Positions 1-54,931 of a stretch of DNA of 64,000 nt are shown here, one piece after another. Origin of the DNA: Chitinophagaceae bacterium (lineage in GTDB: Bacteria > Bacteroidota > Bacteroidia > Cytophagales > JASGCU01); assembly GCA_030053935.1 (NCBI GenBank), contig JASGCU010000001.1:14738-78737 (forward strand). Reading direction: 5' to 3'. A program made the translations under genes and the position numbers. Every line of letters starts with the position of its first letter. Within the stretch, counting starts at the first letter, position 1. The notes below the pieces were generated by a model that saw only the letters and a program-made list of their open reading frames with translations, did no database searches and had not been told where the DNA came from.

Positions 1-3000
1 TGTTCTGTATTTGTTCTAGGACAGCAGAGTTAGATATATTGTAGCGAGCAGAGAGTTCTGAGTTTATAGAAGGGGTTAGTTTTATTTTTTTTCTTTCTGC
101 GTATTGTAATAGAGTATCTTTTAGGTTTGTGATAGTTTGATTTGCTTTATGAATAGTTATCACAAAGGTTTGAGTAGTAGGATTGTAATTTTCATTTCCT
201 GATTGGGATACGGTCATAGATACTGTTCCTGCTCCTTTTATTACCAAGGTATCTTGAATGAAAGAAACGATTGTTGTGTCGTGGGATACATATTGAGAAA
301 TAGGTAAATAAGAAGTAGCAGTGATGGTATTTAGTTTATATTTGGTTTTGCTATAGATGAGAGTAGTAGGGGTATAATGTATGGTTTGGTTTGCTTTTTG
401 GATAGTGAGTGGTATTGATATTTGTGTTTTGTATGTTTCTGCGTTTCCATTTTGGGTTGCTGTTATGAATACTTTTCCTGTTCCTACGATAGAAGCGGTT
501 GTACCTTGTATTTTGACAATAGATGTATTAGAAGATATATAGTTTATAGGAAGATGGGCAGAACTTTGTGCATTAAGAGCAAATGAGCTGTCTGTATATT
601 TTTTAGGAGAAGTTACATAGAATTCTGATATGGTTTGGTAGTTTTTATTGACAGAGTATGTATAGCTTTGTATAACGTCATTAGGTGTAGTTCCTGTTTC
701 TGCGGATATAAATATTGATCCTGTATTATCAATAGTAGATGTGAGGTGGTTTGTAGTGAGATTATAAGGAGATGGTGCTATGGTATTCCATATATTATTT
801 TTATATATCCATACTTGTGGTATGTTGTTTTCTATTGCGGATTTGTAGATAATTCCTTCATTATCTATGAGTATATGAGGGTAAGAACTGGTTCCAAATC
901 CTTGTGTTCCTAAGTCGTTCCATGTGCTTCCGTTATAATATTTTGTAATGAGAGAGGATATGTTATTAAGATATGCTATGTAAGGTATATTATCTGGTCC
1001 AAAAATTATTGGGGAGCTTACATTTCCGGAAGTGAGAGTTGTGCCGACAACTCCTACACTTATCCATGTATTATTTTGATATCTGTATGTTTTCAGCGAG
1101 CTCGCGTTATTTACAGTAATATAAGGTATATTATCGTGATCAAAAGACAGTTTTCCATAGGAGTTCGTAATAGATGTTCCTAAGTTCACCCAGTTTGTTC
1201 CTTTGTTTTTTATTATATAAGTAGCATTATCTGTTATTTTTCGGAAAGAAACATAGAGGGTATCGTATTTATCAATTGCAAAATGGATATAATTAATATT
1301 ATCGGGTAAGGAAGAAGAGTTCAAGATGGTTTCCCATGTTTGTGTAATTTTATTATATTTTTTGAGATTTGCTTTATTCGTTCCATCTACGTAAGCAATA
1401 TATGGATTTCCATTATTATCAAGATTCATAAGAGAGTTAGTGCCTACCCCTGCGTTTCCTATATCTACAAAAGATTGTCCTTGGTATTTTAAAAGAGATA
1501 TAGAACCATTTGTTTTTCTAATAGATAGGTAAGGTACGTTATTGATTTTATCTATACCTAATGAATGTTCAGTAGATTTTATGAGTACTGGAGCGGGTGT
1601 AACGTCTGAAACGATATTATTTTTAATAGTTTGAACTCTGAGAGTATTTGCAAAATTACGAGATATAGATGCAATCATTGGTTCTTTATTTACATTTACA
1701 GAGAGAGATGCATCGGATGAAATGCCTGATGAGATGGGAATAGGAGTGTTCCATGCATTTGTATTTATATCAAATTTACTGTAATATATTAAGTTATCTG
1801 TTCCGATTCCACATGGGGAATTTGTTCTGAATACTATGTGCGGTATGGTATCTCTATCTAACACAAGAGTTGGTTTTTCGGATATGTTAGATTGGCATCC
1901 TGATGGGTCTGATGCTCCTGCACTGTTCCATACGATTCCTGCTATTCCTTGGAATGTACTATTTCCTAAGTCTGTCCATATATTTTTGCTATATTTTTTT
2001 ACTCTCAATTTTTGGATTGTTCCTGTTTCTTTGAAAGCGACAAAAACATCACCATTAGGTGCAACAGCAATAGAAGTATAGAGAGCATTTGTAGATATGT
2101 TTCCTATATTTTCCCATCCTGTAGTGGTATTCTGTATAGTTATTTTATAAATATTAAGTCCTGTGTTATCTATGAGAGAGGCGTACGCTGTATCTTGTTC
2201 AGATATTGTTATGTCTATGTTATTTCCGTCTTTTGATATGCTTCTTATAGTATCCCATTTGTTTTGCGATGTGTTATAAAAATAGAGATATAATTTGGTT
2301 CCTGTGTTTGTAAATATATATGGTTTTCCTTTGTGGTAGGTGGTAATATTTCTCCCTGTTGTTGGTATCTCTCCCCTATTTCCTAATACGTTCCATTCAT
2401 TTCCGTCGTACTTCATTGCAGTGATATTATTGTTTTCTGAGGCATCTTGGAAACTTGTGTATATATTATTGGCAGAGTCAGCTGCGATGGATATATTTGT
2501 AGCAAAAGTTATGGAAGAAAGTGAAGCTGTGGAAAACGATTTTGAACCTACGTATTTCCATTCGTTATTTTCTAATGTTCGTATTGCTGCGGTGCCGTTA
2601 CCGTCTTGGAAAGCGGTATATATAGTTCCTATTGAATTTACATATACGGATGTTTGGTTGAGTAATATACTTCCTTCTGCGGGTGAAGATGGTATAGGTG
2701 CAAAGCGTTTTGTATTATCTACAACTGTTGTATTTATTCCATTAGTAATACTTGGTTTTACTTGAATAACAAATGTATTATACAAAGAAGTATATTCTGA
2801 ATTTCCATTGTTCGTTGCGGTAAGTGTGGTATTTCCTATTCCTTTCATTACAAGAGTATCGTTGCCTTTTATAGAAGCTACGGAAGTATTAGAGCTGGTA
2901 AAAGATACTGTTCCTGATGGGATAATTGTATAAGTTAATTTCAGAGGAGCATCACCTAAAAAAACATTGGGATTTGTAAATATAATAGTTTGATTTGCTT

Positions 3001-6000
3001 TATTTATAGATATGGTTTTTGTGATACTTGCGGGGAAATAATTAGCATTTCCTGTTTCAAATGCTGTTATTTGTATTGTTTTACTTGTTCCCGCTGCGGT
3101 AATAGTAACAGTATTGCTTATTATACTTACATTTGTATTGCTGCTGCTAAAAGATACGGGTAATAATGATGTTGAGGTAGCTGTAATTGTAAATGGTACC
3201 CCTATAGTAGTTTCGGTAGGATAAGTGGTAGTAATTTGTTGAGAAGATTTTTGGAGGTTGATGCTTATTGGGTAGGTGACTGTATTCGCTGCTTGATAAT
3301 TTATATTTCCGCTTTGATTTGCAATTATAGAAACCGTGCCACCGGATGCAAATAAGGTTCTTGCTGTGGAGGAAAGGGTGACAGTTCCAGCAGCGATAAT
3401 AGTAAATCCTGTATTTGTAGATGAGTATGTTATAGGTAATCCCGAGGTGGTAATTGCGGGATTAAATATAAGAGATGTGTCATTTCTACCAAAAACATAG
3501 GTTGTATCAAAGGTTATAGATTGTGATGCTCTGTGAATAGTAATATTTTGAGTAACAGAGGCGGGGTTATAATTTTGATTTCCTGTTTGGTATATGGTTA
3601 CGGAGGTCGTGCCTGCTTCCAAAATAGTTATAGTATTTCCGGTTATATCTATCTTCGTATTTGCACTTGAGTAAGAGAGTGGTAGTGTAGAACTATTTGT
3701 AGCCACTATAACAAATGGAGCATCTCTGTATGTTTTATTTGCTAATGTAAATTGTATATTTTGGTTTTGTTGGGATACTGTAAAAATAAGAGATATAGGA
3801 GGAGCAGCATCGTAGATGTTGTTTCCGGTTTGATAAGCAACAAGAGATGTTGTTCCTGCATTTCTTATAATAACTGTAGATCCGCTTATTTGAGCTATTT
3901 GTGTGTTAGAGCTGCTGTATTTTAGGGGAAGTAAAGAGGAGGCAGTTGCATTTAAGACAAAAGAAGGGTCTCCATAAGTTTTATTCGTAATGGCAAAAGT
4001 TATGGTTTGTGTATTTACTTTATAACCAATGGTAAAGTATCCAATAGTTGTGCTTGGGGTAAATACAAATTCTAATTGGTTGGTATGAGAGTTAGCGGTT
4101 GGATTGATGACGGTTACATTATTAAAATTTTTATTATCTGCAATGATCATACTGTACTTAGAAGGGTTTTCTAGATTTGAGAGAGCGAAGTTCAAAGTAA
4201 GTTCTCCTATGTTTCCTGTATGTTGGTATGCAAATACTCTTGTTAATAATCTATGAGGATTATAGATATGGTTCACGCTATCTACTCTTGTACCGCTAAA
4301 GGAAGAGGTTCCTGTGTTATTATCTCCCCATATAAAATAAGAGTTATTGGTTGGTTCGCTGTTGTATCTTATTTTGAGTATACCTGTTCCTTGGGCTTCT
4401 GTTACTTTTTCTTGGGAAGAAATTTTTCCGATACCTGCCACATTGAGGTCAAAATCTCCTAAAGCGGGATTATCTAGAGTATATAAGTCTACCGTTGGGG
4501 TGAGAGTTATATTATATTTAGCTGCGAGATAATTCGTAAGAATATTGTGTTCTACGGTATTTATTTTTCTATTATAGAGAATTATTTCATGAATAGTTCC
4601 TTTCCAGAGAGATCCTTGGGTTATTTCAGAATTTGCACCGATTCTGAATATATTATGAGGGGTAGAATCTATACGTGTGAAAAGTGGAGAGGTGTTATTA
4701 ATGGAGAATAAGAGAGAATCATTGTTGTAAAGTGCGGCAGTTATAGTAGGAGTATTGAGAGCGGTAGAGGAAGAAGCACTTGTATTATTATTCGCAAATA
4801 GGGTATACTTATCGCTTGTATTTTTTCCTATTCCGAAAGAGGTTTGGTTATTTTTTTCTCCGTAAGAAATAATATACGCTGTATTGTTGGTAGTAGCGCT
4901 GTCACTTGCAACGGTGATGAGAGTTCTGCTTTCTTGATAGAATGGGATTCTGTTATTTCCGAAGGTGTAATAGGTATTTGTTCCGTTGAAATAGATACCT
5001 CCTTTATTTGGCTGTGTTCCAACAAATATACCTCTATTAGAAGTAGAAGATTGAATTGCATTATTATTTCTATTAGATTTATCTTTCCATGTTTGAACAA
5101 CCGTGCCTGCTGTTGGGTTTGGAGTACTTACGTCTCTTCCGTCTAACCAAAGGACTACATCTGTTTCTTGTCCATTTACAATGCCGATTCCTGCAGGTCC
5201 ATTAGGATTTTCTACATAGAGGGTGTCATGGATAGGGATTATGACATAATTTTTATTGCGAGTATTAACGCCTGTTGTATCTACTGTGATGGGGTATTTT
5301 CCTATGGAATTAGGGGTAGTAGATATGGTGGCAGTAGGTTTGAGAGTATAGATATTTTGATCATCGGGTGTTATAAATCCTTTATAGGATATGGTAAATA
5401 GAGGGTTTTCTTGATATACAGTTTTTGTTTTTCTATCGGCTTTTGCAAAAACAGTTGCTTGGGTTACTGTTAATCTTCCTGTATTGTATACAAAATTGTA
5501 ACGAGAAGAAGCTCCACCTGAAAGTTTTATGGTATCGTATATTCCAATAGGTATGGTTTTAGGGATAGGAATAAGAGATATGGGTGAAGAGAAGTCAATG
5601 CTATCATAAGTGTGTCCTGTTTTCAAACCATTTATACTCAGGTTTGATGGTTTGAAAGAAATCGTATCTGTAGTTCCAAAAGATCTGCTTATAGGAGCTA
5701 TAGTTATAGAAAGAGAGGATTTGTTAATAGTTATGGATTGTTGTGCGGATCCGTAAGCAAGTATATTATCAACAGCATTTTGTTGTGCAATGAGAGAAAT
5801 AGTTCCTATTTTTTTTATGATAAGCGTATTTCCATTTACCGATGCGACTTGTGTGTTGCTGGAAATATAGGTAATTGGGGTTGTGGAAGATGATGTTATG
5901 TATGTATTCAGGTTTATTTCTCCTTGGGCGTAGTAAATAGGAGGAATATTCATAGTTATTCTTTGTGGAGTAGCATTTGCTCTGCTGGCAATAGTGAAGA

Positions 6001-30000: not shown

Positions 30001-33000
30001 ATGTAGTAGGATCGATAGAAAATAATACCGTTTGTCTTCCTTTATCTATATATAAAAGAAAGGATTGATTCAAAGGATTATAAGTAGCATCTCCGCTATT
30101 AAAAGCGGTAATAAAGGTACTTCCCGTGCTTAATATACGAATACTATCTTTTCCCAAAGAAGAAAATATCTGTGCAATGGTAGAAGAACTGCTAAAAGAA
30201 ATGAGTAAAGTAGAATTAGCAGTATATTTGAGAGCAAATATATTTTTATTTGCTCCGTATATTTTAGAGTTTGTAGTTTCATTATCAAAAGTGATTACTT
30301 GCACTGTATTATTTACCACACGAAGAGTTCTAGAAACTGATAATGCAGGGTTATAATTACTATTTCCTGTTTGAATAGCAGTGATAGTGCATGTACCAAC
30401 TGATGTAATAGTAATAGATGCTCCATTAATAGACGCAACTGAGGGATCGGAACTGGAATAACTTATAGGGAGACCAGAAGTACTGGTAGCATCCATTAAA
30501 AAAATTCCTTCCGATGTACTCCTATCTCTCAATTGAGGAAGAGAAATAGATTGATTACCTTTTACAACTGTCAGGGAAAAGGTAGTGTCTTTCATAATAT
30601 AGTTTATATCTCCATAATTATAAGCCGTAATAGTTACAGATCCTACTCCTGTAATTTTTATTTGATTTATGCCATTAACACATTGAACTATATTGGTATT
30701 AGAAGAACTAAAAGCAAGAGATAAAGGAGAACTGTTCGTATAGGAAACAAAGAAATTAGGATCTCCATACGTTTTTTGAGAAGGAGGGTTCCATACAATA
30801 TTTTGTTGTTGCTTAGAAACAAAAAGAGTTTGAGATACTGAAGCGGTATCATATATACTATTTCCGGATTGAAAAACAGTTATAGAAGTAGATCCACTTT
30901 GTAAAATAGTAATGCTCCCAGATGTATATATAGCAATTTTTGTATCCGAAGAATAATAAGAAAGTGCCAAACCACTATTAGTAGATGCGGTAAATAAAAA
31001 AGGTGTATCTCCAAAAGTTTTAGGACTAATATTAGTAAAACTGATGGTTTGAGGCAGTTTATCCACTCTTAAAATTTGAGAAACGGAAGCAGAATCATAT
31101 TGGGTATTACCCGATTGGGATACTTTTATAACAGTTGTACCAGCTCCATTTATAGCTATTGTGTCCGATTGAATACTGGCTACGTAAGTATTAGAACTAC
31201 TATATGTAAGTGGTAAAAAACTATCTGTGGTAGCACCTACTAAAAAAGGATTATCTGTAATTGCTTTTGAAATAATAGCAGGGAATGTAATACTTTGTTT
31301 TAATAGTGATTGAGATAGAACAAAAACACCAGTCGTAATAGAAGGATTATACACAAAACTTATTCGAGAAGTACCAACTATTGAAGGTTTAATGGCTACA
31401 ATATTCTGAGGAAGTGTGGTAAAACTGGTATCTATAGCACTAGAAATTAACAATCTATAAGCAGCAGATGGATTAGGAACTTCAAATGATATGGTTATCT
31501 GTCCTATATTATTTATATTATTAAAACCATATCTTCTCTCCATAAGGAAATATCCCGTGTCCCTTATCCTTACATTTCTATTGGTATTTATAGTGGTAGA
31601 TAAGTTATTATCTCCCCATAAGAAATAGGAGTTAGTATTACTTATACCAGCACTAGAAATAGTTACTATGCCCGTTCCTCTGGATATTCTCAAAGTATCT
31701 GTAGCACTACCAGCTCTTCCTATACCCGCGACATTAAAATCTAAATTTCCATTTCCTGGATTATCCATGGTATAAAAATCATTCGTTATAGAAAAATTAT
31801 ATTTTGCGGATAGATAATTGGCTATTATATTTTGTTCTGCCCCATTAACTATTCTATTATATAAAATAGCTTCTCTAATAGAACCTTGCCAATGTTCGGT
31901 TCCTGCTCTATTATTTCCTAAACGAAATACTCCGCTACCAGTATTTAATCCTGTTGCATCAGATCTCACATCATTATCAAAATTATATTTTGCGGTTCCC
32001 GAAACCATGTTTGCATGGAATAGATGTATATCCGTATTTGCATTATCAGGATTCACATCATTTGCCCATCCAAAAAAACCCACCTTATTAGCAGATGTTT
32101 TTCCAAATCCAAAATTTTTACTAGCACTACCAACGTTGTCTGCATAAGCAAGTATATGTCTGTATCCCGAAGTACTTATATCATTTGTATGTGCAACTAT
32201 AAAAAGAGATCTAGCGGAAGTTCCGGTAGGAAGTCCCGAAGTGCCCATGGGATAGTTATCATTACTTCCATCAAATAAGAGTCCACCACCGTTATTTGTG
32301 AGAGAAATAAATGTTGCTTGGTTTGCAGGGGTAGATTGCGTAGCATTATTTCTTCTTCCTGATTTATCCGTCCATGTTTGAACTGATGAATTTACTGTAG
32401 GATTGGTTCCATTTCCATTTATATCTCGTCCATCAAGCCATAGAATAAGATTTCCAGACGATCCCGTAGAACCTACCCCCGCAGGGGATAGAATTCCTGT
32501 TGTGATAAGTAGATTATTATTGAGTGGATATTCTACTATATAATTGAGAATATCTGCATCATTTAAATCGTTCCATTGATACGCATTCCCATTCCCACCA
32601 GGGTTTGCTGCGGGCCATCCTGCAAGTCCTATTGCTACAGATTTTTGACCTGATGGAGAATAGGTCGCATCTGTATAATTATCGGGTTCTTGATTTCCAA
32701 AATTTTGGTAAACAGAGTTAAAAGTACTTCCACGATTACCGCTTACATTTCCCTGCCAAAATTGACTTGTAGTAGACGAAATATTTCTTCCATCCCAATA
32801 AAAATTCCCTTGATTTGTCGACGTTCCTCTTCTACCGCCTGTCCATACATAACGAACTCCTCCACCGTCATTCGCTGTAGGATAAGAACTGGTAGTGATA
32901 CTTTGTAAATACGTTCTTATGGTGTCGTATTCTGCAGAAGAATTAATTTCTAAAAGCCGTCCTCCTCTACTGACAGCATCAGAGGATGCACTTGCCCAAT

Positions 33001-33151
33001 TCTTAGCACAATTAGAAATAACTTCATATCTTTTACCCACCGGTGCAGGAGAAACAATACTGACAGTACACTGAGCACTTGATTTATATGTATATAATGA
33101 TATCCCTACTACTACTGCTACTACTAATTTTATGTGTGTGTTAAAATTCAT
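1..33151 (-). CDS. Giant secreted multidomain lectin/adhesin-like protein; N-terminus at 33151, 3' end runs off the window (>=11,050 codons visible)
   Basis: ATG at 33151-33149 with an in-frame TAA two codons upstream. Hand translation starts MNFNTHIKLVVAVVVGISLYTYKSSAQC. The frame (codon low coordinate = 2 mod 3) is shared by the ATG, by the last full codon at 2-4, and by the Trp codon of all 12 LWLDG motifs (low coordinates 32438, 29495, 27725, 25250, 23564, 21065, 19385, 16565, 14861, 9071, 7100, 5147). Hand-translated stretches (33151-30750, 30790-29460, near 20000, near 10000, 7100-5150, near 4260, 2760-2380, 1200-1) contain no stop. The ORF track lists no minus ORF in this frame, consistent with the caller dropping edge-truncated ORFs. 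Confidence 0.9.
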   Translation of the reverse strand, partial: MNFNTHIKLVVAVVVGISLYTYKSSAQCTVSIVSPAPVGKRYEVISNCAKNWASASSDAVSRGGRLLEINSSAEYDTIRTYLQSITTSSYPTANDGGGVRYVWTGGRRGTSTNQGNFYWDGRNISSTTSQFWQGNVSGNRGSTFNSVYQNFGNQEPDNYTDATYSPSGQKSVAIGLAGWPAANPGGNGNAYQWNDLNDADILNYIVEYPLNNNLLITTGILSPAGVGSTGSSGNLILWLDGRDINGNGTNPTVNSSVQTWTDKSGRRNNATQSTPANQATFISLTNNGGGLLFDGSNDNYPMGTSGLPTGTSARSLFIVAHTNDISTSGYRHILAYADNVGSASKNFGFGKTSANKVGFFGWANDVNPDNANTDIHLFHANMVSGTAKYNFDNDVRSDATGLNTGSGVFRLGNNRAGTEHWQGSIREAILYNRIVNGAEQNIIANYLSAKYNFSITNDFYTMDNPGNGNLDFNVAGIGRAGSATDTLRISRGTGIVTISSAGISNTNSYFLWGDNNLSTTINTNRNVRIRDTGYFLMERRYGFNNINNIGQITISFEVPNPSAAYRLLISSAIDTSFTTLPQNIVAIKPSIVGTSRISFVYNPSITTGVFVLSQSLLKQSITFPAIISKAITDNPFLVGATTDSFLPLTYSSSNTYVASIQSDTIAINGAGTTVIKVSQSGNTQYDSASVSQILRVDKLPQTISFTNISPKTFGDTPFLFTASTNSGLALSYYSSDTKIAIYTSGSITILQSGSTSITVFQSGNSIYDTASVSQTLFVSKQQQNIVWNPPSQKTYGDPNFFVSYTNSSPLSLAFSSSNTNIVQCVNGINQIKITGVGSVTITAYNYGDINYIMKDTTFSLTVVKGNQSISLPQLRDRSTSEGIFLMDATSTSGLPISYSSSDPSVASINGASITITSVGTCTITAIQTGNSNYNPALSVSRTLRVVNNTVQVITFDNETTNSKIYGANKNIFALKYTANSTLLISFSSSSTIAQIFSSLGKDSIRILSTGSTFITAFNSGDATYNPLNQSFLLYIDKGRQTVLFSIDPTTYGASPLVVPQNSDVNLPLIYSTSNTRVISINGNTLTLIGAGEALITAYNTGNIGYYPVEYSQNLSVSQKTLHIFPVVGSDHLLGHAGPIETFTYSGFVTGDNQNNSLSRLPTPNFALVDTFRIGTYTLQVDTTGLRSSKYSIVIENTTYRVVEGNTTIGGTSLENLVLWLDGRDIHGNGNAVIPYSSVSQWRDKSGRGNHAMIHSSGLGSTLADPLGGFYFDRTNQEYFEVPSLQGFSSGERTIIAVLKNNITSGDEVALSYGVPQSGNGFFLGKNNSNNYFTGAYSGTDINTSIAANTFEILSLTEDGNNNGTDIKIGDSFSSGYENYGFNTSVNSPFRIGAEIGTAQKFWNGNIYEVLFFNTVLRQIDYNILLNNLSAKYNTLLTSKDFYILDNLNRGNFDYNVAGIGIDTDGETLITSKGTGILRVSVPLVSGDEKYFIWGDNNENATIPNSTTNIDGKSYYIMHKKYGFQQYKANSSEIFHNFTFHFSIPNLDTTYRLIISKNQNFENANILKPITVSNNQIVFSTSINSIDTGYFVLGKYSTISVAQSSTGTTTNIGNVNNTFHNISFSSLPHRTYGNASFRLTGSVSSEIPILFSSSNTAIASVFGDSIRINGAGTTHITAYVNTNDFFVPVTHTLRVFRQSLNILVDNKQKIQTNPNPLFTYSYNGFVNNDLFVNILYTPTLFTTPANPNVNGNYTISVDTTTNGGWTANVPNYKLTSITTGTLEVLLPTPTVTNGPAGVDITGSTSNLILWLDGRDINGNGINPAASSSVATWTDKSGRGNNATQSTSANQATFISPANNGGGLLFDGSNDNYPMGTSGLPTGTSARSLFIVAHTNDISTSGYRHILAYGDNAGTGNKNFGFGKTSTSRLGFFGWGNDVFPDNANTNIHLFHANMVSGTAKYNFDNGVRSDATGLNTGSGVFRLGNNRIGGEYWQGSIREAILYNRIVNGAEQNIIANYLSAKYNFSITNDLYSMDDAVRGNFDFQVAGIGKDASGNQTSLSVQTHRSILRITKTQDIPSNGTYFIWGENNTADSTFTNTPTTVIGTLYENRLVKTYAFHQTGSIGNMNLLFTIRNTHAGYRLVLSADSTFSTTPLVLSPTNITSTTIEFQNINVGNRTSGYFTLVRNKAVQSLTFSNIISQKTYGDKNIKLSITGTVSGIPLLFSSSNTSVVSIISPDSLRIQGSGIASVTAYHTGNASYSSQNVTQTITVVKANQTIDFGTVPILSILHRSFYNVKPTASSRLPIQYTLDFLPMIARIVNSNDSIIITGTPPATTTITAQQTGNANYNPADPITQTLIITSKYLSTVTFSGITNHTFGDDPFRINGKANTSDGKVFPVLYSSSNTNIAQVITTQIDTTIKINEGGTVTITAYYPENTNYLSSSTTRILNITKNTQYITFLGINNKVYGDSPFILIASTSSGLPVYFSSSSTLISIHSNTLSIRGAGNNIPITAYQSGANQYSPAYPIIRYFSIDKAPLTIKADDKTITSIPNNSLFTVSYSGFKYSDGEEIIYPKPLVTTTIPVTTNGSYQIDVNIPNNLSSQNYFFIIQSGTLNFVNPNGPAGIGSSQDLVLWLDGKDIFGTGENPSASTPVYQWKDKSNKNNNATQTNQVPLFAGSNGNEGGFLFNGSTNFYEFGSNAIPVSNQNRTILIALKNTNIKKITSSQYALAYGTNTSNNLVGLGIDTSQNLSFFGGGTTSIVSSIKLATPQIAIWKMNNGNGSFINTSQNINTSLFLTLPNSMYRLGVLDNTIPNQFFRGQIYEVLIYNRALNSTEQNILQEYISAKYNTEAPLQNIYTMDEPSNGNFDFHVAGIGAENDGIVLSAKGTSIAHITSRDLLSPNSYFIWGDNNLSTDFSNISVTKNSQTTHFLSTHKQFAFSNKNGSKNISFQFYIPNLNSQYLLLISSQKDLSNYDTITPTSFNSTSITYNATVSLPTGYFTIIKVLKPQSIQFSLSSQQTYGNQVVLNASATSGLPISYVSQQTNVVRINQNNFYMVGVGTSTISLIQSGNENYFPTTINIVITVEKALLTVTPDNKTKYVNTSNPSLTISYSGFVWNDNVYSLGIQRPNLTTTANTNSSIGTYPITFIDTSGLNNASTLAYRYTYNPSGTLTITSNTNGPGGIGSVLSNNDLVLWLDGRDINGNATNPSNGVSVSTWTDKSGRGNNATQSTSANQATFISLANNGGGLLFDGSNDNYPMGNSGLPTGTSARSLFIVAHTNDINESVYRWLNAYGGVSAQSQHFGFGKYPTSLGFIGWQNDHATDNANINNHLFQANMSNTVAGDIIYNFDNAYRTALSNFNTGTTTFRLGNNVWGTEFWKGSIREFILYNREVNTVEQNIIANYLSAKYNFSITNDLYSMDDVVRGNFDFHVAGIGRNSATEIVTNTKGSGILLVSVPQITNNGYFIWGENDRSTNIDNTQKTIISNIPYALMNKKYGFNQTTYMGEITFVFYVNNTNPNNYKLLLYPNSTDTTFSSNNVVVIEPNIQNSNIYQIEYKINTTASSGIFALAKPIIPQTITFSPIASRQYGSGSIPLHASASSGLPVSYSISSIPASGVTSLIGNTLTLLGIGQVTVTATQSGRPDTAAASPVSRIFLINKANQSLTFPLTTIYRNASNTAPYTLISTTNAGLPITYSTSATNLVLISGSTVLFKGIAGTATIIAYQPGNANYSQLTPHTALIININNLIIPPITFGGNQLNSITYSANILPVKLTAASIIPSSLPVFYSSSNPQVATIHGTTIDTMKIIGGGTTIITAYYETNGIDYSSNSNSVVFTVHKRTQTYNLASHNINMMYGDTPIPLNITTSAGLPVSFSSNNTSVVFIQNNSIQTNGSGIATVTVSNTGNAVYEAIPPVTIGIQVVKTNLVAKAEDISINKGTTPKYIISFTGFKNNDNILTLGNINIPFATVNSPVDISQNGQYTIDVNSNNFYSNKYNITPVSGILTLSFPNGPAGIGTLGTYNDVVLWLDGREILKNASLLSTYIVQWSDKSGRNNHAIQNNINNRGRYIMGLNEKGGILFDGNNDYYDFGNNGIPTGNNARSLFIVGKTQELFPQSTQYLFSYGDTSEASKRVSAFGIKNNGTQNNFVFFNGNNYTDFAELDDSDHLFKGIAHNNNDITVSLDNNSTNTSIINNTGNTHFRIGLKEWNGYLREALVFNRSLHTVEENIITNYLSSKYGTKLYANDLYTLDEPDSGNYDYNLAGIGKENNIEIFSSIGTGILGVEKKDAFVGSKNYFIWADNDSSSQTSGIKLLPSISYLLIPRKIAYERTGNIGTIDLTFNISQTDTSWRLFLFKDKTLQSQGLQIIKPSQATPQNITFTLNGDSIYKKGVLGIGTKGISQTLTFASILNKTYGDTDFILQTYSSNSNPITFSVSNTIVSLNNNIATIRGTGTVSITATLSGSVAYTPVSITRTFTISRKVLGITADNLNKIQGTANPTFTITYTGLGNQTINFPPIATTTAITTSPIGNYTIRLDTVSGFKNANPYYTISLTHGTLNIRSAITTNNTGPGPGGIGNRGTNTDIVLWLDGRDINANNTNPTAGTSVGTWRDKSGRGNNATGGGNFNNLISNGGGVSISSSYSGSVNGFPGGGNSRSAFVVANSTNTGIEGNTGGRAAFVYGYDGQDCFTSTAFFIGKRTSYAAGIGFSIPEPSMYGCPRLDNGFVSTAFSSTNNIIVAAIVNTSNSTPVYVANNLIGTRTRANNTNLNRSYFIGERLTPESGDIFGNAGLWQGSIREVILYNRAINHTERNIISNHLAAKYNTDEIGNNYYTMDSVGSNYDFHVIGVGRESSIDFVSRTQSPGVLSVSVPNINSAGTGTYFFCGATTDNVTPPVLATGTSTTFADNRTFNLLNSSYGFNQRRVSNTGIGNITITFRITGYNFTANDNLVITSAKAFNSGVSVTVINPSHTDIFTDSIRYNVDFGTLTSGVFTIGRETAGSTPQTVAFNNFITDHTYGEPSIQLEGQSSSGLAVSYFSRNTLVATISQNTLNINNVGTTYIHIIQNGNGTYLSVRDSVLLRVHKSSQIITFNSTDIFSTGGYTKLQAVLTAPYKNSGLPILYSSSATQIVIVRDSFRIQAPVNIVSITAYETGNTNYLPVYQITNIGIFRSYQSVNFNLNYVQKQVLPASASSGLPVVYNSSNTNIALVTGNTVQIGAGVGTVSITANVNENIYYLPFTQSQTIEIISGKQFQSITFSNIANTTFPNGFNDAVVFLNASISSGLDISYSSSDGNTSIQGNTAIISKVGTFTITAMQSGNTSFYPALSVSKTFVVTKIPQTITPIPVAALTQEYGTDPYYCNATSSAGLLLTYSSSHTNVVSFSSNIAIVRFPGIATITISQQGNDKTNPAISVTQIFTVKKANLTITVGNVTRPIGNTDKNFTLLYNGLKNNETELPLENRPTVSVNTNQYSPSGMYNVTLTSPISTKLPQNYNLILPNPAGTLTITNNYGQLAGVGNIGIDGDVSIWLDGHDINGNGNTFTPNNPVEIWKDKSGKGFDAIQTNASKQATYSANGGLLFTDGKSYQMPNIPSINRAKRSLLAVINNTDGTIGERYILSFGVSQRGGGFSLGKKDDKLAFFGSGDLKITANSTLATNHLLYAYRVISAADSALLYHDNTKVGSTFVSQTKDTLKLGSYFNGTQSWNGTIKEIILINRDINVVERNILSNHLSAKYNFLLSSQDIYTMDDTTRGNYDYNVTGIGKENNQTLLNVKGSSKVRAVYSNSDALQNNNYFIYGDNNKKDTFQETKIGTQKYHLLKRTFAYNKIGTGNDSIFFTFETNRTKIDTTYKLLLSQNDTTLSANLVSIKANRLGNDSLITYKLIPTPNSYGVFSIGKLLKKQTLTFVNIPSVKTYGDAPITNLNVSSTGLPVSTIIALDTNIVSISPPKGTAVDYTLKIKKNGTVTILGIQTGSTVYASDTIKATITIQKARLSISVDDKTRFVRVNNPILTYTYAGFKNNDIDTILAIKPTISTNATFLSPIGTYSITLDTTNSYTNPYYTFVLSKSTGTLTISDITRSPGGVGIIGNSGSDVILWLDGRDITPLQSISTWTDKSGRSNNATGTSTPTSNNRITGGVNFTSSSSHVLTLSTFNGIPLGTSNKSMFIAVKGTITNNKKVSVEYGNAATTPVAFGMGQTGGKYNYFSKTQNIADNNSPLIATDQNAVLSSTVFNKNILFSVNGNTNRISTYRADTTIATGASFRFKIGESVSTSNLARWDGTIYEIIMYNRAIGNNATSSAEQNILWNYLAAKYNTALTSNVDIYQMDNSTKGNFDYNVVGVGKEAIDSVTDARGTNSVRVNNILNIQNGEYFFWGDSSLISTTDAIGTSSVTLGNKYYQLSQKNHGFQHKGSIDSLTLNIYSQIDSLNSRYKLLIRYNNESDDSVKVISAKNNETNIDTVNNIISYRIAPKPNSFGVFTIGKEYDAQIITFDSISPKTFGMTQFKITATSNSALPVYFSSSNTNIVKIRGTNTPQDSLIIQNAGTTVITAFNTGNATVRPGYTKRTLIIKKNTPSITFNLPSSKTFGDTPIKLTASITANPSSIQDTILRVKYISSNTSIAQIIQSHTTDTLKIIGTGTVQITAYNISYTNYDSTAVIRIMTISKNRPTIILNTPDTVTFGTAPINLQTTSLLTNPSMQNNGLTISYSTSKTIAEILRNTTKKRDSIFIKGIGLFKLTARITENSNYDTASATKNIFVKKYTPTIAFSLPQKTYGDVSFPLTASISSDTLQTNTVSNNNGFAVLYSSSSTLIQIRTISGQFQKVDSIKILSAGTCLVTAYYIGDSNIISTSTQKILTIHKKQQTIPDANGIPSFVNIFLKPGVNYTIPRFTNAGLRVKYVTNPSIQGNISITKDSVVHTISLGTVTITAYNTGNQNYDSIARSQVLVVQNGNFQSISFAPLPIKTFGDRTWKLTAFSVDSTNTILPIADFPITYSSGDTTIAKIITVDSIQILKAGTVYITANQSGNNIYNPATAITRIFTIHKAGQTIQFTSIPLLYTFGDNNIPLSASASSPLSVSFRSSNTHIASIFRNNNKDSIQIRGNGIVIISAFHTGDENYILSDTIRQILTISKKSVVFSFGILPNKTIGDPTFKITTVSINPSLSLTYTSSSSIVSISNDSIHIIKSGTTIITASYNGGDNYNPASSSFNQPLVIFKKSQSIHFPNLLHKTYGDNAFLLQATSSSSLPIRFTSSHPERSLITTNNFGTPSQTDSLQITEIGTVNITASVDGTDDFYAATPEIRTFSISKANQTITLTNIPVLTYGNNNNIFTLSAITQYSHITKPTGLPLIYSSSNTLVGNIINTNHLQILSIGTTLITVTQTGNTNVSAANSVSQIVTIVPRVLSLSFATINNRTFGDNNNIITFNALSSAQLPITYSSSNTNIVFSNDSTYINTAAGVTSVNATILNAGIFTIYATHNGGNNYDPSSQTVSHTFTVSKNSQSINIAFIPQKTFEDAPFIINANLTSPNNYNASLPIIFSSANTSVLRIGADTIRILGAGTASITAIQTGNANYASATPLVYTMNILRKTLTLAFLDIRKTYGDNPFILQSTANSSLLKVVYSSHNTLIASINTDTVKIKQAGTVNITALISGDPTNYANSVSLTQILTIDTAIQTIVFPALAHKNPFDPDFIIPATTTSGLKIMFSISNTDIARFINDSTLTLVDPGTVTITATQTGNHNYKAAPPVYRTLVVNNRLSNVIDFTFPTSFVYGDGLKILNATASSSLTVTYSNANTQVIRIINNNGNFIQILSAGTTTITAIQTGNSQYNAAIPVTRTLTINKAILTVTIPNISRIYGNKTPSSNPSITYNGFKTINGITDNNSAITTTPTITYADSTLEVGTYNDSVRVSDARATNYEFYYIPSDLTITKRNLTLTPDNKTKEFNEENPLFTIQYNTINPFDSLKLSALGRLPQAHSTAIKTSPIGNYSITIDTTETKLNKNYILTLNTAPFTITPKIIHNNLVLWLDGRDINANKTNASYQIATWKDKSGKYNDATQTIFSKTPTALLSNQNDGGLIFNASEEQFYNFGSTDIPTGTNPKSVFIVTSNNTNNGNQIALSWGSTSTGNNINIGKINNNYAFFSNSQTISTNATSSNNTLLSVINNVVKINNDINNAQILSTSPAANGAYKLGNSSINGNSEYWNGNLKEVLIYNKTLNTTEDIIIQNYLSAKYNIPLTSQDIYTMDNPANGNYDYNVTGIGKTDNSNYVSEASPIDILKITNPIGLEDNEYFLAGDNDSSATLSSYNLTIQTKNYNPFKRKWAFNHIGNIDSVTLTFSANSFNGDTLKLLLNTSNVFDNTTQIINPLFYSNEKVTYKVKIGSQSNGYFTLAASRSKTAQVITYNQITQTKEYADADFIINASATGSTFTPVTIRSLDTTLLKLTMSGATGIYNAQIKGVGIVTIIAEKEGYQTYDHALPVYKTITINKARATINLTQTPIKIYGDTAFANTFNLNAFQFNGLKTGETPQNILVQYPTVKVKQGINFNAGLKLNALTIANAKANNYTFDYREGNIKIERATLIATPQSKAVVIENTIPTIPIIYQGFVNNETESNLNTKPQIQIGTPNIIGNHSITLDTTDANASISGNNYKIIPQTGTLSIVESKGPAGIGAINSSVPDITLWLDANSIDKNNANTTLSLWNDKSGQNNNAQTSRGTITFTFPNKNSPSLTFDGTSGMTFGKTNIPTKLQQRTIIAVGNTDLGTRYILSIGNSTTQKNFAIGKDAQNFYAFLSGNNYKKISSSNNTSTTDIMSVVSIPNNNTNKVSFKVGGRIHNFQADTVSIDSTSHEFLSIGYDASNNSKYWNGSINEIIIFNRTLSTVEQIILSNYLSAKYNTTLSQNNYYTQDEITNGFDYNVSGIGQEADGTITSAKGTGILKISHPLGLDVNGEYFIWGDNDSLNLFTDTLITNGARFSTIQKKWSFNQRNSAGPSANAIDSLTLTFYLTNTTTQHLLIISPNRNMTNAVEISPKNVLSDKIIFRIKPNTSTGFFTIASRANATPQRITMNIPPIYYAQGEINLNTYITSSSTTPITYISSNTQVASVNGNTLIIKKIGTISLIAQQNAVDNILAYGSAQQSITINKSSLSITIAPISRSFGTTDTISFKPSNLSINGLKTGHTYDSIDFSSPISLIPIPKTIPIGIYDTIKLSGGASSRYNFVYNTGRLTVTQATVFAKADRKTKTVYQENPLFTISYKGFITPDDQNIYTLKPTATISTTPNSIGKYPITVDTTGVNTRNKNYVIIPIHDTLYVENPNGPAGIGIVNGQETDVVLWLDGRDVSTPNPTAGTVVQTWKDKSNRNNNAIQSSTSNRGIFVGTQPNKGGIYFNGTNTYYTFGNNRIPFYQESRTLITVASDSATTNNTAYIISYGEKNNQTSFGIGKNTSDKYTLFANNNTSASSSTALNTPTITAALYNNDSLLFSINNTSPLFTRIDSTPHNIFRIGANSEITQGSLWKGTIHEIILYNRKINTVEHNILTNYLAAKYNITLTPTVDLYTLDNPALGDFDLNVAGIGKISSQEKVTEAQGTGILKIRYNSEPTNNSYFIWGDNNTGTSSFSGTRVDSVNHIYNPHRLLTRVFAYQHTGNIGELTLNFALSNLENPSKYSMIIADNKNFNNVTVINPTANSHTNQLEFVFTPSTTIGYFTIGYKVNTQTITFAITNKTYGDPSFVLNATASSLLPLKYSSSNTQIAQISGSTVIIRNAGTTSLVAYQTGNNIYDAAPPISLIFTVSQQNQNIQFTLANKTYRDAPFVIVATNSSTLPLSYSSANTKIDITGNTITILEAGTTSVTIYQTGNQNYNPASVTQNITIHRASQSITFDTTYVFGRNDTSLIFNPAITTSGLPITYSSTNTGFTIIAAGTVTLSSTARTLFASGGTVSIIANQSGNINYQAANTVTYPISINLQKSSQQITTTYPTETTIGVPFTITATSTSLLPVSFSSSNTNVSIISNTVTITAAGTSKTIQITAFETGNANYFPASITKTISINKANQTIIFTNPNVFLGDAPLKLTYTIIPSGTVSFTSSNTSVASIKGNDTLVMKGIGNTTLTATNNGNSEYTSLYNTFVIQVKPSITNGINTTVVDNTKRFAPIPSSPAEGSILLNQTSVYVNSIGTIYTAFQDGNGTAAIRTLENNEWKYVGSKSFSTASLSSITFATNISIAADSANNIYTSFQDASENNNITAMKYDGNEWNVLGNRGEIPTTGRNITTYHKGKPYIFTNTGTKLYLYFYNTSQNKWDTIRSISKDGNNIDITISEQDTAYASLIDNTGLNIYKITIQNTTTGWENIGNISTNALYTSIAVAPNGDVFVAFKETGTIQKLRVKKYSKNIWTDLGNSTFQGIAGIVWNSAGASDPSGCQSNISEKPTLVLDRDTIPHIVFRTNSPCGIGTDNLIYYSKFDINTNAWNTPIPISSGISSDASLSVNVNKEPMIASISRNFANTLRVQTIKNNIVSDVTPAPVLIKSTEHSLGIDKINNVPYLSIRKTNGSISLLKYQGQSFVDIGNAGVGTNSLMNLDNNGNPYIAYVDGTNKANLKKYNKITQTWETILNSSSLPDNINYIHFAIDKYDTLYVSFRKITDNATYIIKNKGTNWVNLGTSITNSYGKLSFDHDNIPYITVNNASSLKTYRYQNNTWISVGVVGTTLTSGNVSSPIIFGPDNIPYIAYLNNISSLITKYYNGSTWNDLGTQGFGTSSYPHILIDNEGIIYKSAIENNIPQVWIYKNNIWNTIAPSPYNLTTNHLTSTIDNTGSIFISAETGTTPNDVIQSYTYSVNKNYQTISEFYVTSPKKYTDSSFALNAQSSAHLPINYISSNTSIVKIQGTTASIVGTGKVFITATQNGNAETYKTQISIPLTIQKANQTIHYTPTTLIYSKTKYKLNTITATSYLPISQYVSHDTTIVSFIQDTLVIKGAGTVSMTVSQSGNENYNPTTQTFVITIHKANQTITNLKDTLLQYAERKKIKLTPSINSELSARYNISNSAVLEQIQN
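700..2750 (-). repeat. Beta-propeller-like region, ~12 repeats of ~55 aa, inside the giant ORF
   Basis: Hand translation shows recurring blades such as IYTAFQDGNGTAAIRTLENNEWKYVG, IYTSFQDASENNNITAMKYDGNEWNVLG, IPYITVNNASSLKTYRYQNNTWISVG and IPYIAYLNNISSLITKYYNGSTWNDLG. The pattern is (P/I)Y(I/T)A(F/Y)...(K/R)(Y/T)....W..(L/V)G. Confidence 0.5.
4515..5170 (-). repeat. LamG/ConA-like lectin domain, module 12 of 12
   Basis: Starts VVLWLDGRDVSTPN and ends LTNYLAAKYNI. Confidence 0.6.
6470..7125 (-). repeat. LamG/ConA-like lectin domain, module 11 of 12
   Basis: Starts TLWLDANSIDKNNANTTLSLWNDKSGQNNNAQ and ends ILSNYLSAKYNT. Confidence 0.6.
8450..9095 (-). repeat. LamG/ConA-like lectin domain, module 10 of 12
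   Basis: Starts VLWLDGRDINAN and ends IQNYLSAKYNI. Confidence 0.6.
9640..13690 (-). repeat. Tandem array of ~16 Ig-like repeats (~83-97 aa each) inside the giant ORF
   Basis: Unit boundaries (K-x-x-Q-T/S-I motif followed by K-T/N-F/Y-G-D-x-P-F) recur near 9640, 9890, 10140, 10385, 10660, 10950, 11225, 11505, 11755, 12015, 12300, 12575, 12880, 13160, 13440 and 13690. Each unit reads roughly Q.I.F....K.(F/Y)GD..F.L.A...SGL...Y.SS.......I.G..(I/V).I...G...I.A.Q.GN..Y..A. Confidence 0.6.
14215..14890 (-). repeat. LamG/ConA-like lectin domain, module 9 of 12
   Basis: Starts ILWLDGRDITP and ends LWNYLAAKYNT. Confidence 0.6.
15950..16590 (-). repeat. LamG/ConA-like lectin domain, module 8 of 12
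   Basis: Starts SIWLDGHDINGNG and ends LSNHLSAKYNF. Confidence 0.6.
18685..19410 (-). repeat. LamG/ConA-like lectin domain, module 7 of 12
   Basis: Starts IVLWLDGRDINANN and ends ISNHLAAKYN. Confidence 0.6.
20435..21090 (-). repeat. LamG/ConA-like lectin domain, module 6 of 12
   Basis: Starts VVLWLDGREI and ends ITNYLSSKYG. Confidence 0.6.
22882..22961 (-). repeat. 80-nt tract identical to 27046-27125 (intragenic, in-frame offset 4164 nt)
   Basis: catcgtccatactatacaaatcattcgttatagaaaaattatattttgcggatagataattggctattatattttgttct is present at both sites. Confidence 0.8.
22920..23590 (-). repeat. LamG/ConA-like lectin domain, module 5 of 12
   Basis: Starts LVLWLDGRDINGNA and ends IIANYLSAKYNF. 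Same subfamily as modules 1 and 3. Confidence 0.7.
24615..25280 (-). repeat. LamG/ConA-like lectin domain, module 4 of 12
   Basis: Starts LVLWLDGKDIFGTGENP...QWKDKSNKNNNATQ and ends LQEYISAKYNT. Confidence 0.65.
27046..27180 (-). repeat. Tract sharing 80 identical nt with 22882-22961 and 118 identical nt (27063-27180) with 31776-31893
   Basis: Direct comparison of the printed sequence. The offsets of 4164 and 4713 nt are both multiples of 3. Confidence 0.8.
27090..27750 (-). repeat. LamG/ConA-like lectin domain, module 3 of 12
   Basis: Starts LILWLDGRDINGNG and ends IIANYLSAKYNF. Shares long nucleotide-identical tracts with modules 1 and 5. Confidence 0.7.
28855..29530 (-). repeat. LamG/ConA-like lectin domain, module 2 of 12
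   Basis: Starts LVLWLDGRDIHGNGNAVIPYSSVSQWRDKSGRGNHAM and ends ILLNNLSAKYNT. Confidence 0.7.
31776..31893 (-). repeat. 118-nt tract identical to 27063-27180
   Basis: aaatcattcgttatagaaaaattatattttgcggatagataattggctattatattttgttctgccccattaactattctattatataaaatagcttctctaatagaaccttgccaat is found at both sites. High similarity continues to about 32440 and 27725. Confidence 0.8.
31800..32470 (-). repeat. LamG/ConA-like lectin domain, module 1 of 12
   Basis: Starts LILWLDGRDINGNGTNPTVNSSVQTWTDKSGRRNNATQ and ends EQNIIANYLSAKYNF. About 215 aa with the Laminin_G_3-type layout. Confidence 0.7.
32531..33034 (-). other. C-type lectin-like domain (CTLD), aa ~40-207 of the giant protein
   Basis: Hand translation gives NCAKNWASASSDAVSRGGRLLEINSSAEYDTIRTYLQS...VRYVWTGGRR...GNFYWDG...FWQG...NQEPDNY...YQWNDLNDADILNYIVEY. 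These match the CTLD hallmarks: W..A...C...GG.L..I.S..E, WIGG, F.W.DG, an EPN/QPD-type triad (here EPD), and WND. Confidence 0.65.
33071..33151 (-). other. N-terminal signal peptide of the giant protein
   Basis: MNFNTHIK then hydrophobic core LVVAVVVGISLY, then polar YKSSAQC. This is a classic n-h-c layout. Cleavage after SSA or lipidation at the Cys cannot be decided from sequence. Confidence 0.6.
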
Positions 33152-34585: not shown

Positions 34586-34659
34586 TTCAAAATTAGGTTT
34601 TTCTCTTCTATATCTATAAAAAATTATAAATCAAAATAAAATCGTTTTTAGTAACTATG

Positions 34660-34690
34660 CAAATATAATAGTTTTTTTAGTATAAACAAA
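34660..34690 (-). promoter_or_regulatory. Candidate Bacteroidetes-type promoter (TTTG-N19-TATATTTG) upstream of the PiT gene
   Basis: The minus strand reads TTTG tttatactaaaaaaactat TATATTTG. This matches the -33 TTTG / -7 TAnnTTTG consensus with a 19-nt spacer, about 75 nt upstream of the ATG at 34585. Confidence 0.4.
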
Positions 34691-35674
34691 GTTTATTAAA
34701 AATATGTTTCTTTTCATTAGTTTTTTGTGTTTACTTTTTTGTCTTTGTGAAACTTAAAAAACAAAAAATCTCGAAAGGATAAAAAAATAATTATCTTTTA
34801 TTACATTTTCTATCTTATCTTACCCCAATCTATAAGCTTACTCACTTGATATCAAAAGTATTTTTCTTCTTAGGATGAAATAACAATGTACTCGAAAATG
34901 CTTTTTATTTCGTATTTATTTCCATAATTATTTATTTTTATTTTTTTACTAAAATAGTGTATTTTTACTTTATTTTATATAATGAGTCATATAACGATTC
35001 ATTTTGATGAAAATGTATCAATTTTTTTCTAATTTAGTTTTGCAACGGTCTCAATTTGGCAACTATTTGATTACCAATGGTTTTAAAACTTAATAGTTTT
35101 GTGAAAATGACTTTTCAAAATAGATTCATTGATTTAAAACATTTATTTTTGAATTTTCTACAGTAAAATCTTTTTTTGGATTTTATTTTTTTTACAAAAA
35201 TGATTAAAAACATTTTTTCTTCTAAACGAATTTATTATTTGTCTTTTTGTTTTAGTGATATACTTGTACCATTTTTATTTTAATTTTTGGTTAAATTAAA
35301 GAAAATACTAACAGAATAATATTTTTCACAAAGTACATGTTGACATTTTTTTTATTTTTAAGTTTTTTTAGATAATACATTCCTAAAATAATTTGAAATT
35401 ACAAAAAAAAGATGTCATCCGAACAGCAAGAATAGAAAAAAAATAAAAAAAACAGTTGAATCAGGATTAGACATATTAAACGAAGGGTAGCATGTATACG
35501 ACTCAAAAAGATATAAAACTCACAGGAAAACAAATACAAATTCTCTCTACGGGATGGAAAAATAAGCTTTCTGTTTCAAAAATTAGAGATACTTTGAATA
35601 CGTTATAATCTTAAATAGATATAAAAAACACCACAAAGGAAAAAAATTTAACCATCTTATCTTATATATACAAA

Positions 35675-51206: not shown

Positions 51207-51242
51207 TTTGTTTTTTTTTAAGAAAGATGGTAAGAAAGTATT

Positions 51243-52814: not shown

Positions 52815-52816
52815 TT

Positions 52817-54238: not shown

Positions 54239-54287
54239 TATATTTGTTTTTTTTAGTAATATAAAATAAAACTATATCTAAATTTTT

Positions 54288-54926: not shown

Positions 54927-54931
54927 AATTT

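Follow-up and report, generated by a model that had tools for sequence, protein, structure and literature searches.

Is the left half of this piece of Bacteroidota DNA one gene, and what would the product of such a gene do? The piece, called the window here, is the whole stretch of 64,000 nucleotides (nt) that was analyzed: positions 14,738 to 78,737 of contig JASGCU010000001.1 in assembly GCA_030053935.1 of a Chitinophagaceae bacterium. No open reading frame (ORF) longer than 141 amino acids (aa) was listed in window 1-33151. An earlier note on this DNA had claimed that an unlisted minus-strand frame, the giant ORF, runs for more than 11,000 codons without a stop as far as position 2, where the window edge leaves it open, and had suggested that it encodes a secreted, lectin-rich adhesin.

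The giant open reading frame

Translation bore out the first claim. The frame is as follows:

2..33151, minus strand: giant ORF, complete at the 5′ end and cut at the 3′ end by the window edge, 11,050 codons visible

Starting at the ATG (33151-33149), the frame had 11,050 sense codons and 0 stops before it reached window position 2. An in-frame stop between 2 and 33148, which the earlier note had named as fatal to its claim, was looked for by full translation, and none was present. The nearest in-frame stop 5′ of the ATG was a TAA at 33157-33155, two codons ahead, where the note had placed it. The five remaining frames across the 33 kb had 468-1148 stops each, and their longest open run was 150 codons. 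If 0.070 of codons are expected to be stops, as the base composition of the region implies, the chance of a stop-free frame of this length was ~1e-349. The GC content of third codon positions was 0.22 in the giant ORF and 0.26 in adjoining housekeeping genes.

The absence of the frame from the ORF track, also pointed out earlier, is explained by the listing rule: ORFs crossing the end of the source go unlisted, and the tool yields only ORFs of ≤141 aa in 1-33151. There were no tRNAs and no Rfam matches in the window. Genes or RNAs overlapping the giant ORF were dismissed, as there was no tRNA, no Rfam match and no other-frame ORF longer than 141 aa. We concluded that the frame is one real, uninterrupted, coding gene and that the window holds its first three quarters. 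Its product is almost certainly a real giant protein of extracellular type.

Length of the gene and reliability of the frame

The gene lies on a 423,289-bp contig, of which there is a second public copy (ENA ERZ26695264, contig_6; L002 below). We aligned L002 to window 23194-44585. The two were ~99% identical, with scattered 1-bp indels and clustered substitutions. The giant gene was called in L002 as pieces of 1996, 540, 147 and 12,012 aa. The 1996-aa and 540-aa 'proteins' in public collections are fragments called from this copy. The final piece is an unbroken ORF of 12,012 codons that starts at L002 19620, at about aa 2729 of the protein, and it independently supports a giant frame. Because it spans 12,012 codons, the stop would lie ~11.07 kb to the left of window position 1. 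From the L002 gene table we infer a full product of ~14,740 aa and ~1.59 MDa, of which 1.195 MDa is visible. The C-terminus is thus missing, as the note had said, and the table implies ~3,690 further codons.

The same copy also provides what speaks against one intact gene. It carries three 1-bp indels within the first 8.2 kb of the giant gene, near window positions 27185, 25433 and 25167, which cut it into the four ORFs. Over the first 1,989 aa, its 1996-aa fragment (P0015) and the window disagree at 26 residues, of which 19 fall in modules 1 and 3, which belong to the most similar of the paralogous modules described below; the base-level sequence of these two modules is therefore uncertain. 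The open frame might then be an artefact, resulting either from mis-assembly of repeats or from polishing that removed the true frameshifts of a pseudogene. We consider this very unlikely. L002 also breaks the genes for DprA, an OmpA-family protein and a methyltransferase, all three of which are intact in the window, where the DprA and OmpA-family products match their Pfam models over nearly the full length. This marks L002 as a lower-quality, error-prone draft. Two of the three indels sit in short A runs, and we read all three as draft errors, not as true frameshifts. Even this draft retains the ORF of 12,012 codons. A repeat-driven assembly artefact was a worry of the earlier note as well, but the longest internal DNA repeat was 736 bp at 88.6% identity, and repeats so short and diverged make collapse or expansion unlikely. 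A decaying pseudogene would not stay free of stops for 11,050 codons at a stop expectation of 7%. Artefact and pseudogene were set aside on these grounds: the intact neighbours, the diverged repeats and the stop-free frame.

Searches for further copies returned little. Scans of GTDB-representative genomes for the continuation of the gene found only a distant Spirochaetota locus, and two metagenome scans (with protein patterns and with an exact 55-mer from the window start) gave no match to the gene. Neither the giant protein nor the 12,012-aa draft piece was among the matches in a word-indexed protein database.

Modular architecture of the protein

Self-BLAST, alignment and hidden Markov models (HMMs) built within the protein assigned 10,097 of the 11,050 visible residues (91%). 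A signal-peptide-like start is followed by a unique domain, 12 modules with arrays of ~85-aa repeats, a unique region of 628 aa, and three more repeats:

33074..33151 (aa 1-26), minus strand: putative Sec-type signal peptide, MNFNTHIKLVVAVVVGISLYTYKSSA then QC, read from the sequence
32537..33073 (aa 27-205), minus strand: unique N-terminal domain with EPD and WND motifs, possibly a C-type lectin-like domain (CTLD)
31481..32473 (aa 227-557), minus strand: module 1, LamG jelly-roll and DUF8202-like segment, no MBG; from an AlphaFold2 (AF2) model and Foldseek
28538..29785 (aa 1123-1538), minus strand: module 2, MBG_2, LamG and DUF8202-like segment; Laminin_G_3 at 28.7 bits, aa 1275-1417
26759..28051 (aa 1701-2131), minus strand: module 3, 72% identical to module 1
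24293..25537 (aa 2539-2953), minus strand: module 4, from self-similarity and internal HMMs
22610..23881 (aa 3091-3514), minus strand: module 5, 62-63% identical to modules 1 and 3
20123..21367 (aa 3929-4343), minus strand: module 6, from self-similarity and internal HMMs
18338..19699 (aa 4485-4938), minus strand: module 7, from self-similarity and internal HMMs
15632..16876 (aa 5426-5840), minus strand: module 8, with the IWLDG variant
13889..15172 (aa 5994-6421), minus strand: module 9, from self-similarity and internal HMMs
8135..9349 (aa 7935-8339), minus strand: module 10, from self-similarity and internal HMMs
6137..7405 (aa 8583-9005), minus strand: module 11, with the LWLDA variant
4184..5449 (aa 9235-9656), minus strand: module 12, the query that found relatives with DUF8202 and a sorting domain of the type IX secretion system (T9SS)
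803..2686 (aa 10156-10783), minus strand: unique region, predicted beta-propeller(s), 628 aa with ~55-60-aa repeats
56..802 (aa 10784-11032), minus strand: three ~85-aa repeats past the propeller region, from an internal HMM; the protein continues past the window

Modules 2-12 each consist of an MBG_2 domain, a GPAGIG-type linker, a LamG-like domain of ~215 aa and a conserved segment of ~115 aa, and module 1 is without the MBG domain. The earlier note had counted 12 LWLDG motifs. Self-BLAST and internal HMMs did find 12 module copies, but only 10 of them have exactly LWLDG; the variants are IWLDG at aa 5528 and LWLDA at aa 8683.

The pairwise identity of modules was 28-40%, except for modules 1, 3 and 5, which were 62-72% identical. 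In these three the DNA identity reached 88.6% over 736 bp, whereas all remaining pairs stayed at 28-40% protein identity. The high similarity was limited to the LamG/DUF8202-like part. As it did not extend to the flanking repeats, a recent local duplication or gene conversion is suggested. These three modules also hold most of the positions at which draft and window disagree.

The protein is rich in Thr, Asn, Ser and Ile, with 0.1% Cys. A Thr/Asn/Ser-rich and Cys-poor composition is typical of extracellular beta-repeat proteins. A hydrophobicity scan of the visible protein found no internal transmembrane-like segment. The GC skew of the plus strand was strongly positive (0.21-0.37) over window 1-14000. 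We do not regard this as a replication signal, because the minus-strand gene is rich in Thr, Ser and Asn and its codons favour C over G.

N-terminal region

By eye, the start of the protein resembled a signal peptide, with a basic n-region, a hydrophobic core and a c-region of small residues. In the hydrophobicity scan its core was among the most hydrophobic 19-mers of the protein. This start agrees with the secretion proposed in the earlier note, as do the T9SS sorting domains of module relatives.

The same note had called the domain that follows a CTLD, and this identity is only suggestive. The landmarks are there: a W..A...GG.L.EI.S..E pattern, EPD (in GNQEPDNY) and WND (in YQWNDLN), the last two in the order and at the spacing expected of a CTLD. 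However, no significant alignment extended across them, Lectin_C stayed below its cut-off, and the matches in the PDB had E>0.2. A search with aa 27-205 found no homologues, and the AF2 model, lacking alignment depth, had a predicted local distance difference test score (pLDDT) <50. The domain has only two Cys (C28 and C48), and the disulfides and fold of a CTLD were not found.

LamG, MBG_2 and DUF8202-like domains

The 12 LamG domains of the earlier note found good support. The LamG core of module 1 (~230 aa) was modelled by AF2 as a two-sheet beta-sandwich jelly-roll with pLDDT 80-93, from an alignment of the paralogous modules and six outside homologues. In Foldseek it matched ConA-like/LamG domains of the PDB with E values of 6e-10 to 1e-6. 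The matches were a trans-sialidase lectin domain (E=6e-10), BoNT/TeNT Hc-N and AbnA domain 4, and further the PilC lectin module and C-reactive protein (a pentraxin). Pfam reported Laminin_G_3 (PF13385) for only 2 of the 12 LamG copies, with module 2 above the cut-off (28.7 vs 27.6 bits) and module 11 at 18.9 bits. The relatives P0013 and P0023 also carry PF13385. The remaining copies were recognized by self-similarity.

The MBG-like domains of the note were confirmed as MBG_2 (PF18676, YGX type), which repeatedly exceeded its gathering threshold of 25 bits. Each third of the protein gave 56-86 bits in 3-4 stretches, and 8 of 10 pieces of 1000 aa gave more than 25 bits. Internal HMMs counted 11 copies, one ahead of each of modules 2-12. 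Pfam scans of whole thirds found only MBG_2 and the one Laminin_G_3, and scans of 1000-aa pieces and of single domains added nothing above threshold.

The ~115-aa segment after LamG is probably DUF8202 (PF26628), judging by precomputed annotations of a draft fragment and of homologues. DUF8202 is annotated in the 540-aa draft fragment, which covers the post-LamG part of module 3, and in the relatives P0006-P0012. The Pfam scan of the protein reported no PF26628 match, and the 1996-aa draft fragment has no DUF8202 hit on record. When the module profile was compared with the PDB, only T9SS C-terminal domains (CTDs) matched, and these were contributed by the outside homologues in the alignment (A3).

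The ~85-aa repeats

Between and after the modules, an iterative HMM within the protein found 60 copies of a ~85-aa repeat in 13 arrays, all on the minus strand:

aa 562-1146, 1567-1723, 2141-2562, 2953-3114, 3524-3951 and 4336-4509: arrays 1-6
aa 4924-5449, 5834-6017, 6432-7959 and 8333-8518: arrays 7-10
aa 9088-9172, 9650-10155 and 10784-11032: arrays 11-13
9275..13858 (aa 6432-7959): the longest array, 17 copies, from the iterative HMM and alignment A4

The copies are diverged, with about 30% identity. The numbers of copies after successive modules are 7, 2, 5, 2, 5, 2, 6, 2, 17, 2, 1 and 6. This alternation suggests growth by duplication of a super-unit of two modules, one with a long stalk and one with a short stalk.

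The earlier note had described these as Ig-like repeats. The repeat itself is present in 60 copies, but its likeness to immunoglobulin (Ig) or MBG domains comes from sub-threshold matches. Big_1, Big_2 and Big_3_5 each matched just 1-3 of 44 repeats, below the gathering threshold, and sub-threshold MBG_2 matches were found as well. Comparison of the repeat profile with the PDB gave weak matches to intimin, a LigB-like and a teneurin-like protein. Antibody heavy chains, the top matches of this profile in the PDB, were treated as uninformative. The repeat may therefore be described as Ig/MBG-like.

The predicted beta-propeller region

Self-BLAST found no internal paralogues of aa 10156-10783. 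In the AF2 model of aa 10150-10790, the chain is all-beta and forms regular four-stranded units in two lobes, with a mean pLDDT of 65 and a predicted template modelling (pTM) score of 0.44. The top 50 Foldseek matches were all propellers, with E values of 1e-12 to 1e-10; the TM-scores by query were ≤0.32 and the root-mean-square deviations were large. Among the matches were the tandem propellers of BT4663, the Photorhabdus lectins PLL/PHL, PorZ, YWTD and WD40. The model thus favours the propeller of the earlier note: the region likely belongs to the propeller fold class and probably comprises two lobes.

The only relatives found of this region were one JGI protein (P0001, 1233 aa) and one locus of a Spirochaetota metagenome-assembled genome (MAG) (L001 1662-3566, CAZFGQ010000095.1), at 25-26% identity. 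Both share with it a ~55-60-aa repeat, PY[IV]AY.D...K..V..Y.G..W..[VL]G..GF, and P0001 has a malectin domain (PF11721) alongside the repeat. The repeat may represent an undescribed family of propeller repeats linked to carbohydrate binding.

Relatives and known systems

Module 12, used as a query, found proteins of ~600 aa in which DUF8202 is joined by a T9SS type-A CTD; one of them, P0007 of Ohtaekwangia koreensis, has 617 aa. When the 12 LamG and DUF8202-like units were made into a profile and searched against 1.84 billion representatives, 37,731 clusters matched with E<=1e-3, and for 1,900 clusters E was <=1e-30. The best matches were 1,000-6,500 aa long and carried as many as 19 copies of the module. 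Of the top 150, none was longer than 6,500 aa, though very long proteins may be missing from this library, in which the 12,012-aa draft piece was not present either.

The large Bacteroidota relatives (P0014, 6,104 aa; P0017, 6,154 aa; P0023, 4,525 aa; P0026, 4,592 aa) have a homologous module, with a GPxG[IV]G linker, a LamG domain with (L/I)WLD and W.D.SG..N, a helix ending in NYL(A/S)AKY, and then Y..D...D..VAGIG...(F/W)G.(D/N)N. They also share the N-terminal signal peptide and the plan of many modules set apart by beta-sandwich spacers. In the large relatives that we inspected, a signal peptide precedes the modules, Calx-beta domains separate them, and the protein ends in Por_Secre_tail; in P0023 and P0026, Calx-beta, Laminin_G_3 and Por_Secre_tail (PF18962), the last at the extreme C-terminus, were all found. 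The differences are in the spacers, which are Calx-beta in the relatives and MBG_2 with ~85-aa Ig/MBG-like repeats here, and in size, at most 6,500 aa among the top 150 compared with 11,050 aa visible and ~14,740 aa inferred here. The relatives have neither the CTLD-like N-terminus nor the propeller region. Their T9SS CTD was seen, whereas the C-terminus of the giant protein is outside the window.

SprB of Flavobacterium johnsoniae is a repetitive T9SS adhesin of 669 kDa (PMC9143113). In function it can be compared with the giant protein, being a very large and strongly repetitive Bacteroidota surface protein that uses Sec and then T9SS. The giant protein would be ~2.4 times larger. SprB, a motility adhesin, has a type-B CTD and is paired with a cognate SprF, whereas the module relatives of the giant protein carry type-A CTDs.

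The design principle may also be compared with that of RTX/LapA-type adhesins and Gram-positive 'periscope' proteins, in which a tandem Ig-like rod projects ligand-binding domains off the cell; the analogy is to a rod of Ig domains. Those proteins use the type I secretion system or sortase, and have binding domains clustered at the tip and near-identical repeats. In contrast, here the 12 binding-type modules are found all along the protein, with diverged repeats (~30% identity) between them.

West-Roberts et al. 2023 classified proteins of at least 10,000 aa as 'large' and of at least 30,000 aa as 'giant', and described the latter in Omnitrophota (bioRxiv 10.1101/2023.11.21.568195). With 11,050 codons visible in a single predicted protein, the giant ORF falls in their 'large' class, and it resembles that class in being rare, predicted extracellular and repetitive, with carbohydrate-binding-like folds. 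The earlier note would rank it with the largest proteins of bacteria. This is fair if the rare class of at least 10,000 aa is meant, but the protein is well below the Omnitrophota proteins of at least 30,000 aa. It is less than half of their 'giant' size, and those giants have other domain sets (dockerin, thrombospondin repeats, hydrolases). The survey puts its emphasis on Omnitrophota and other PVC phyla, Actinobacteriota, Myxococcota and Margulisbacteria, and 'Bacteroidota' is absent from its text (bioRxiv 10.1101/2023.11.21.568195).

The size is remarkable; the module set is common in large Bacteroidota surface proteins, and this is no new kind of system. The protein differs from its module relatives in its exceptional size, the MBG_2/Ig-like spacers, the CTLD-like N-terminus and the propeller insert; the module itself is known.

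Proposed function and alternatives

Taken as a whole, the observations are probably best explained by one gene for a repetitive extracellular protein of ~14,700 aa, exported by T9SS and acting as a multivalent, lectin-type fibre adhesin. The signal-peptide-like N-terminus would direct export across the inner membrane by Sec. A C-terminal sorting domain beyond the window would then allow passage through the outer membrane by T9SS; this route is somewhat favoured by the sorting domains of module relatives. The protein would be anchored on the cell surface and extend as a long fibre, on which the diverged LamG modules (28-40% identity), the N-terminal tip domain and the propeller would bind polysaccharide or glycoprotein multivalently. 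As an adhesin, it might thereby attach the cell to surfaces, particles or other cells. For glycan-binding adhesion specifically, which is deduced from folds, our confidence is limited and falls a little short of even.

Several observations count against this adhesin. The C-terminal ~3,690 aa, and hence any T9SS sorting domain, fall outside the window, and there are no T9SS genes within it. Lectin_C (PF00059) matched aa 50-145 with E=0.0048 and 18.0 bits, below the cut-off of 22.6 bits, and the CTLD matches in the PDB (LOX-1, type II antifreeze CTDs) were weak, with E 0.2-0.4. LamG folds serve non-lectin roles too. The DUF8202-like segment and the Ig-like repeats had no confident structural model, and ligands, expression and localisation are predicted only.

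Might the protein be an enzyme scaffold instead, with LamG and propeller as carbohydrate-binding or catalytic accessories and the catalytic domain or domains in the unseen C-terminal quarter? The structural matches did include trans-sialidase, GH43 AbnA domain 4, GH54 and PL7 alginate lyase domains, the propeller matches included a GH74-type xyloglucanase entry (5fkr), and ~3,690 aa outside the window would leave room for an enzyme. Pfam, however, found no catalytic family in 11,050 aa, the sequenced relatives hold only LamG, DUF8202, Calx-beta and CTD and no enzyme domains, and twelve spaced binding modules on Ig-like stalks make an adhesin-type layout, so that we regard a scaffold as improbable. 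A mobile gliding adhesin would likewise be huge, repetitive and of surface type in a Bacteroidota host, like the 669-kDa SprB (PMC9143113). As a T9SS type-B CTD cargo, it would sit on a PorP/SprF-like partner and be propelled along the surface. This is more doubtful still, as the module relatives carry type-A sorting domains (PF18962) and not type-B ones; the position downstream where an sprF-like gene would be expected falls outside the window. The multivalent fibre adhesin therefore remains the explanation that we prefer.

Genomic context

The products PitA, HtpG and FbaA exactly match NCBI MDI9355403, MDI9355406 and MDI9355411 of a 'Chitinophagaceae bacterium' MAG. These exact matches of neighbouring proteins place the host in Bacteroidota, as expected for a T9SS cargo. 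The flanking chromosomal genes are pitA, a methyltransferase gene, miaA, htpG, a merR-family gene, dprA, an ompA-family gene, lgt, fbaA and a polyprenyl synthase gene. Further right are genes for a CarboxypepD_reg-domain protein and an aminotransferase, a complex-I/Mrp-like six-gene cluster and a SulP transporter gene. The immediate neighbour is:

33194..34585, minus strand: pitA-like phosphate transporter, PHO4 E=6.7e-91, 42 nt upstream of the giant ORF

No terminator-like site was found in the 42-nt gap between pitA and the giant ORF. A Bacteroidota-type promoter motif lies upstream of pitA (34690-34660, minus strand), and none lies directly before the giant ORF. As the gap is short and without a terminator, and as the sole promoter motif nearby is 5′ of pitA, the two genes might be co-transcribed, and a shared transcript is possible. 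The motif lies in a gene-poor, very AT-rich stretch of 1.1 kb between pitA and the methyltransferase gene (window 34586-35674; the 34001-36000 bin has a GC of 0.27), which holds the only Bacteroidota-type motif able to drive pitA and possibly the giant gene.

A sigma-70 promoter scan gave fewer sites than shuffled sequences; its consensus is unsuited to Bacteroidota and was replaced by the Bacteroidota-type motif. The latter consensus (TTTG-N17-21-TAnnTTTG) had 10 matches in the window, compared with 3.1 expected from shuffles. Five of the 10 were antisense inside the giant gene, on the plus strand (3547-3577, 12118-12147, 15305-15333, 16087-16116 and 17629-17658). The excess may simply reflect the T-rich plus strand.

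The six-gene complex-I/Mrp-like cluster (50454-57810, minus strand) lies directly downstream of the 728-aa SulP transporter (57886-60072, minus strand). It comprises a NuoB-like gene (with the 4Fe-4S motif), a fused NuoC-NuoD-like gene, two Proton_antipo_M genes, a NuoH-like gene and an ORF of 212 aa, a layout that resembles energy-converting hydrogenase-related complexes. Two ORFs had no Pfam match at E<=1e-3: one of 466 aa (61915-63315, plus strand) and the one of 212 aa (54288-54926, minus strand).

Significance

Proteins of at least 10,000 aa are rare, and they usually go missing when assemblies fragment, when long-read drafts bring in frameshifts, as L002 did, or when ORF callers skip frames at contig or window edges, as happened in the ORF track here. 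The giant gene is a well-supported Bacteroidota example, for which ~44 kb of the genome is spent on one surface protein.

A bolder reading is that this is the largest T9SS substrate yet (~1.6 MDa, more than twice SprB), with 12 or more deeply diverged lectin-fold modules each for a different glycan, and that the fibre reads composite glycan patterns of a partner, host or prey. We hold this to be unlikely. If it were true, an attached way of life, epibiotic or predatory, would be suggested for this low-GC Chitinophagaceae lineage, and the handling of a ~1.6-MDa cargo by the T9SS translocon would become a question.

With this gene, a very common, uncharacterised LamG/DUF8202 family (~37,700 clusters) reaches more than double the size of the relatives known so far. 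The giant protein is a reasonable target for questions about the ligands of LamG/DUF8202 and about the size of T9SS cargo.

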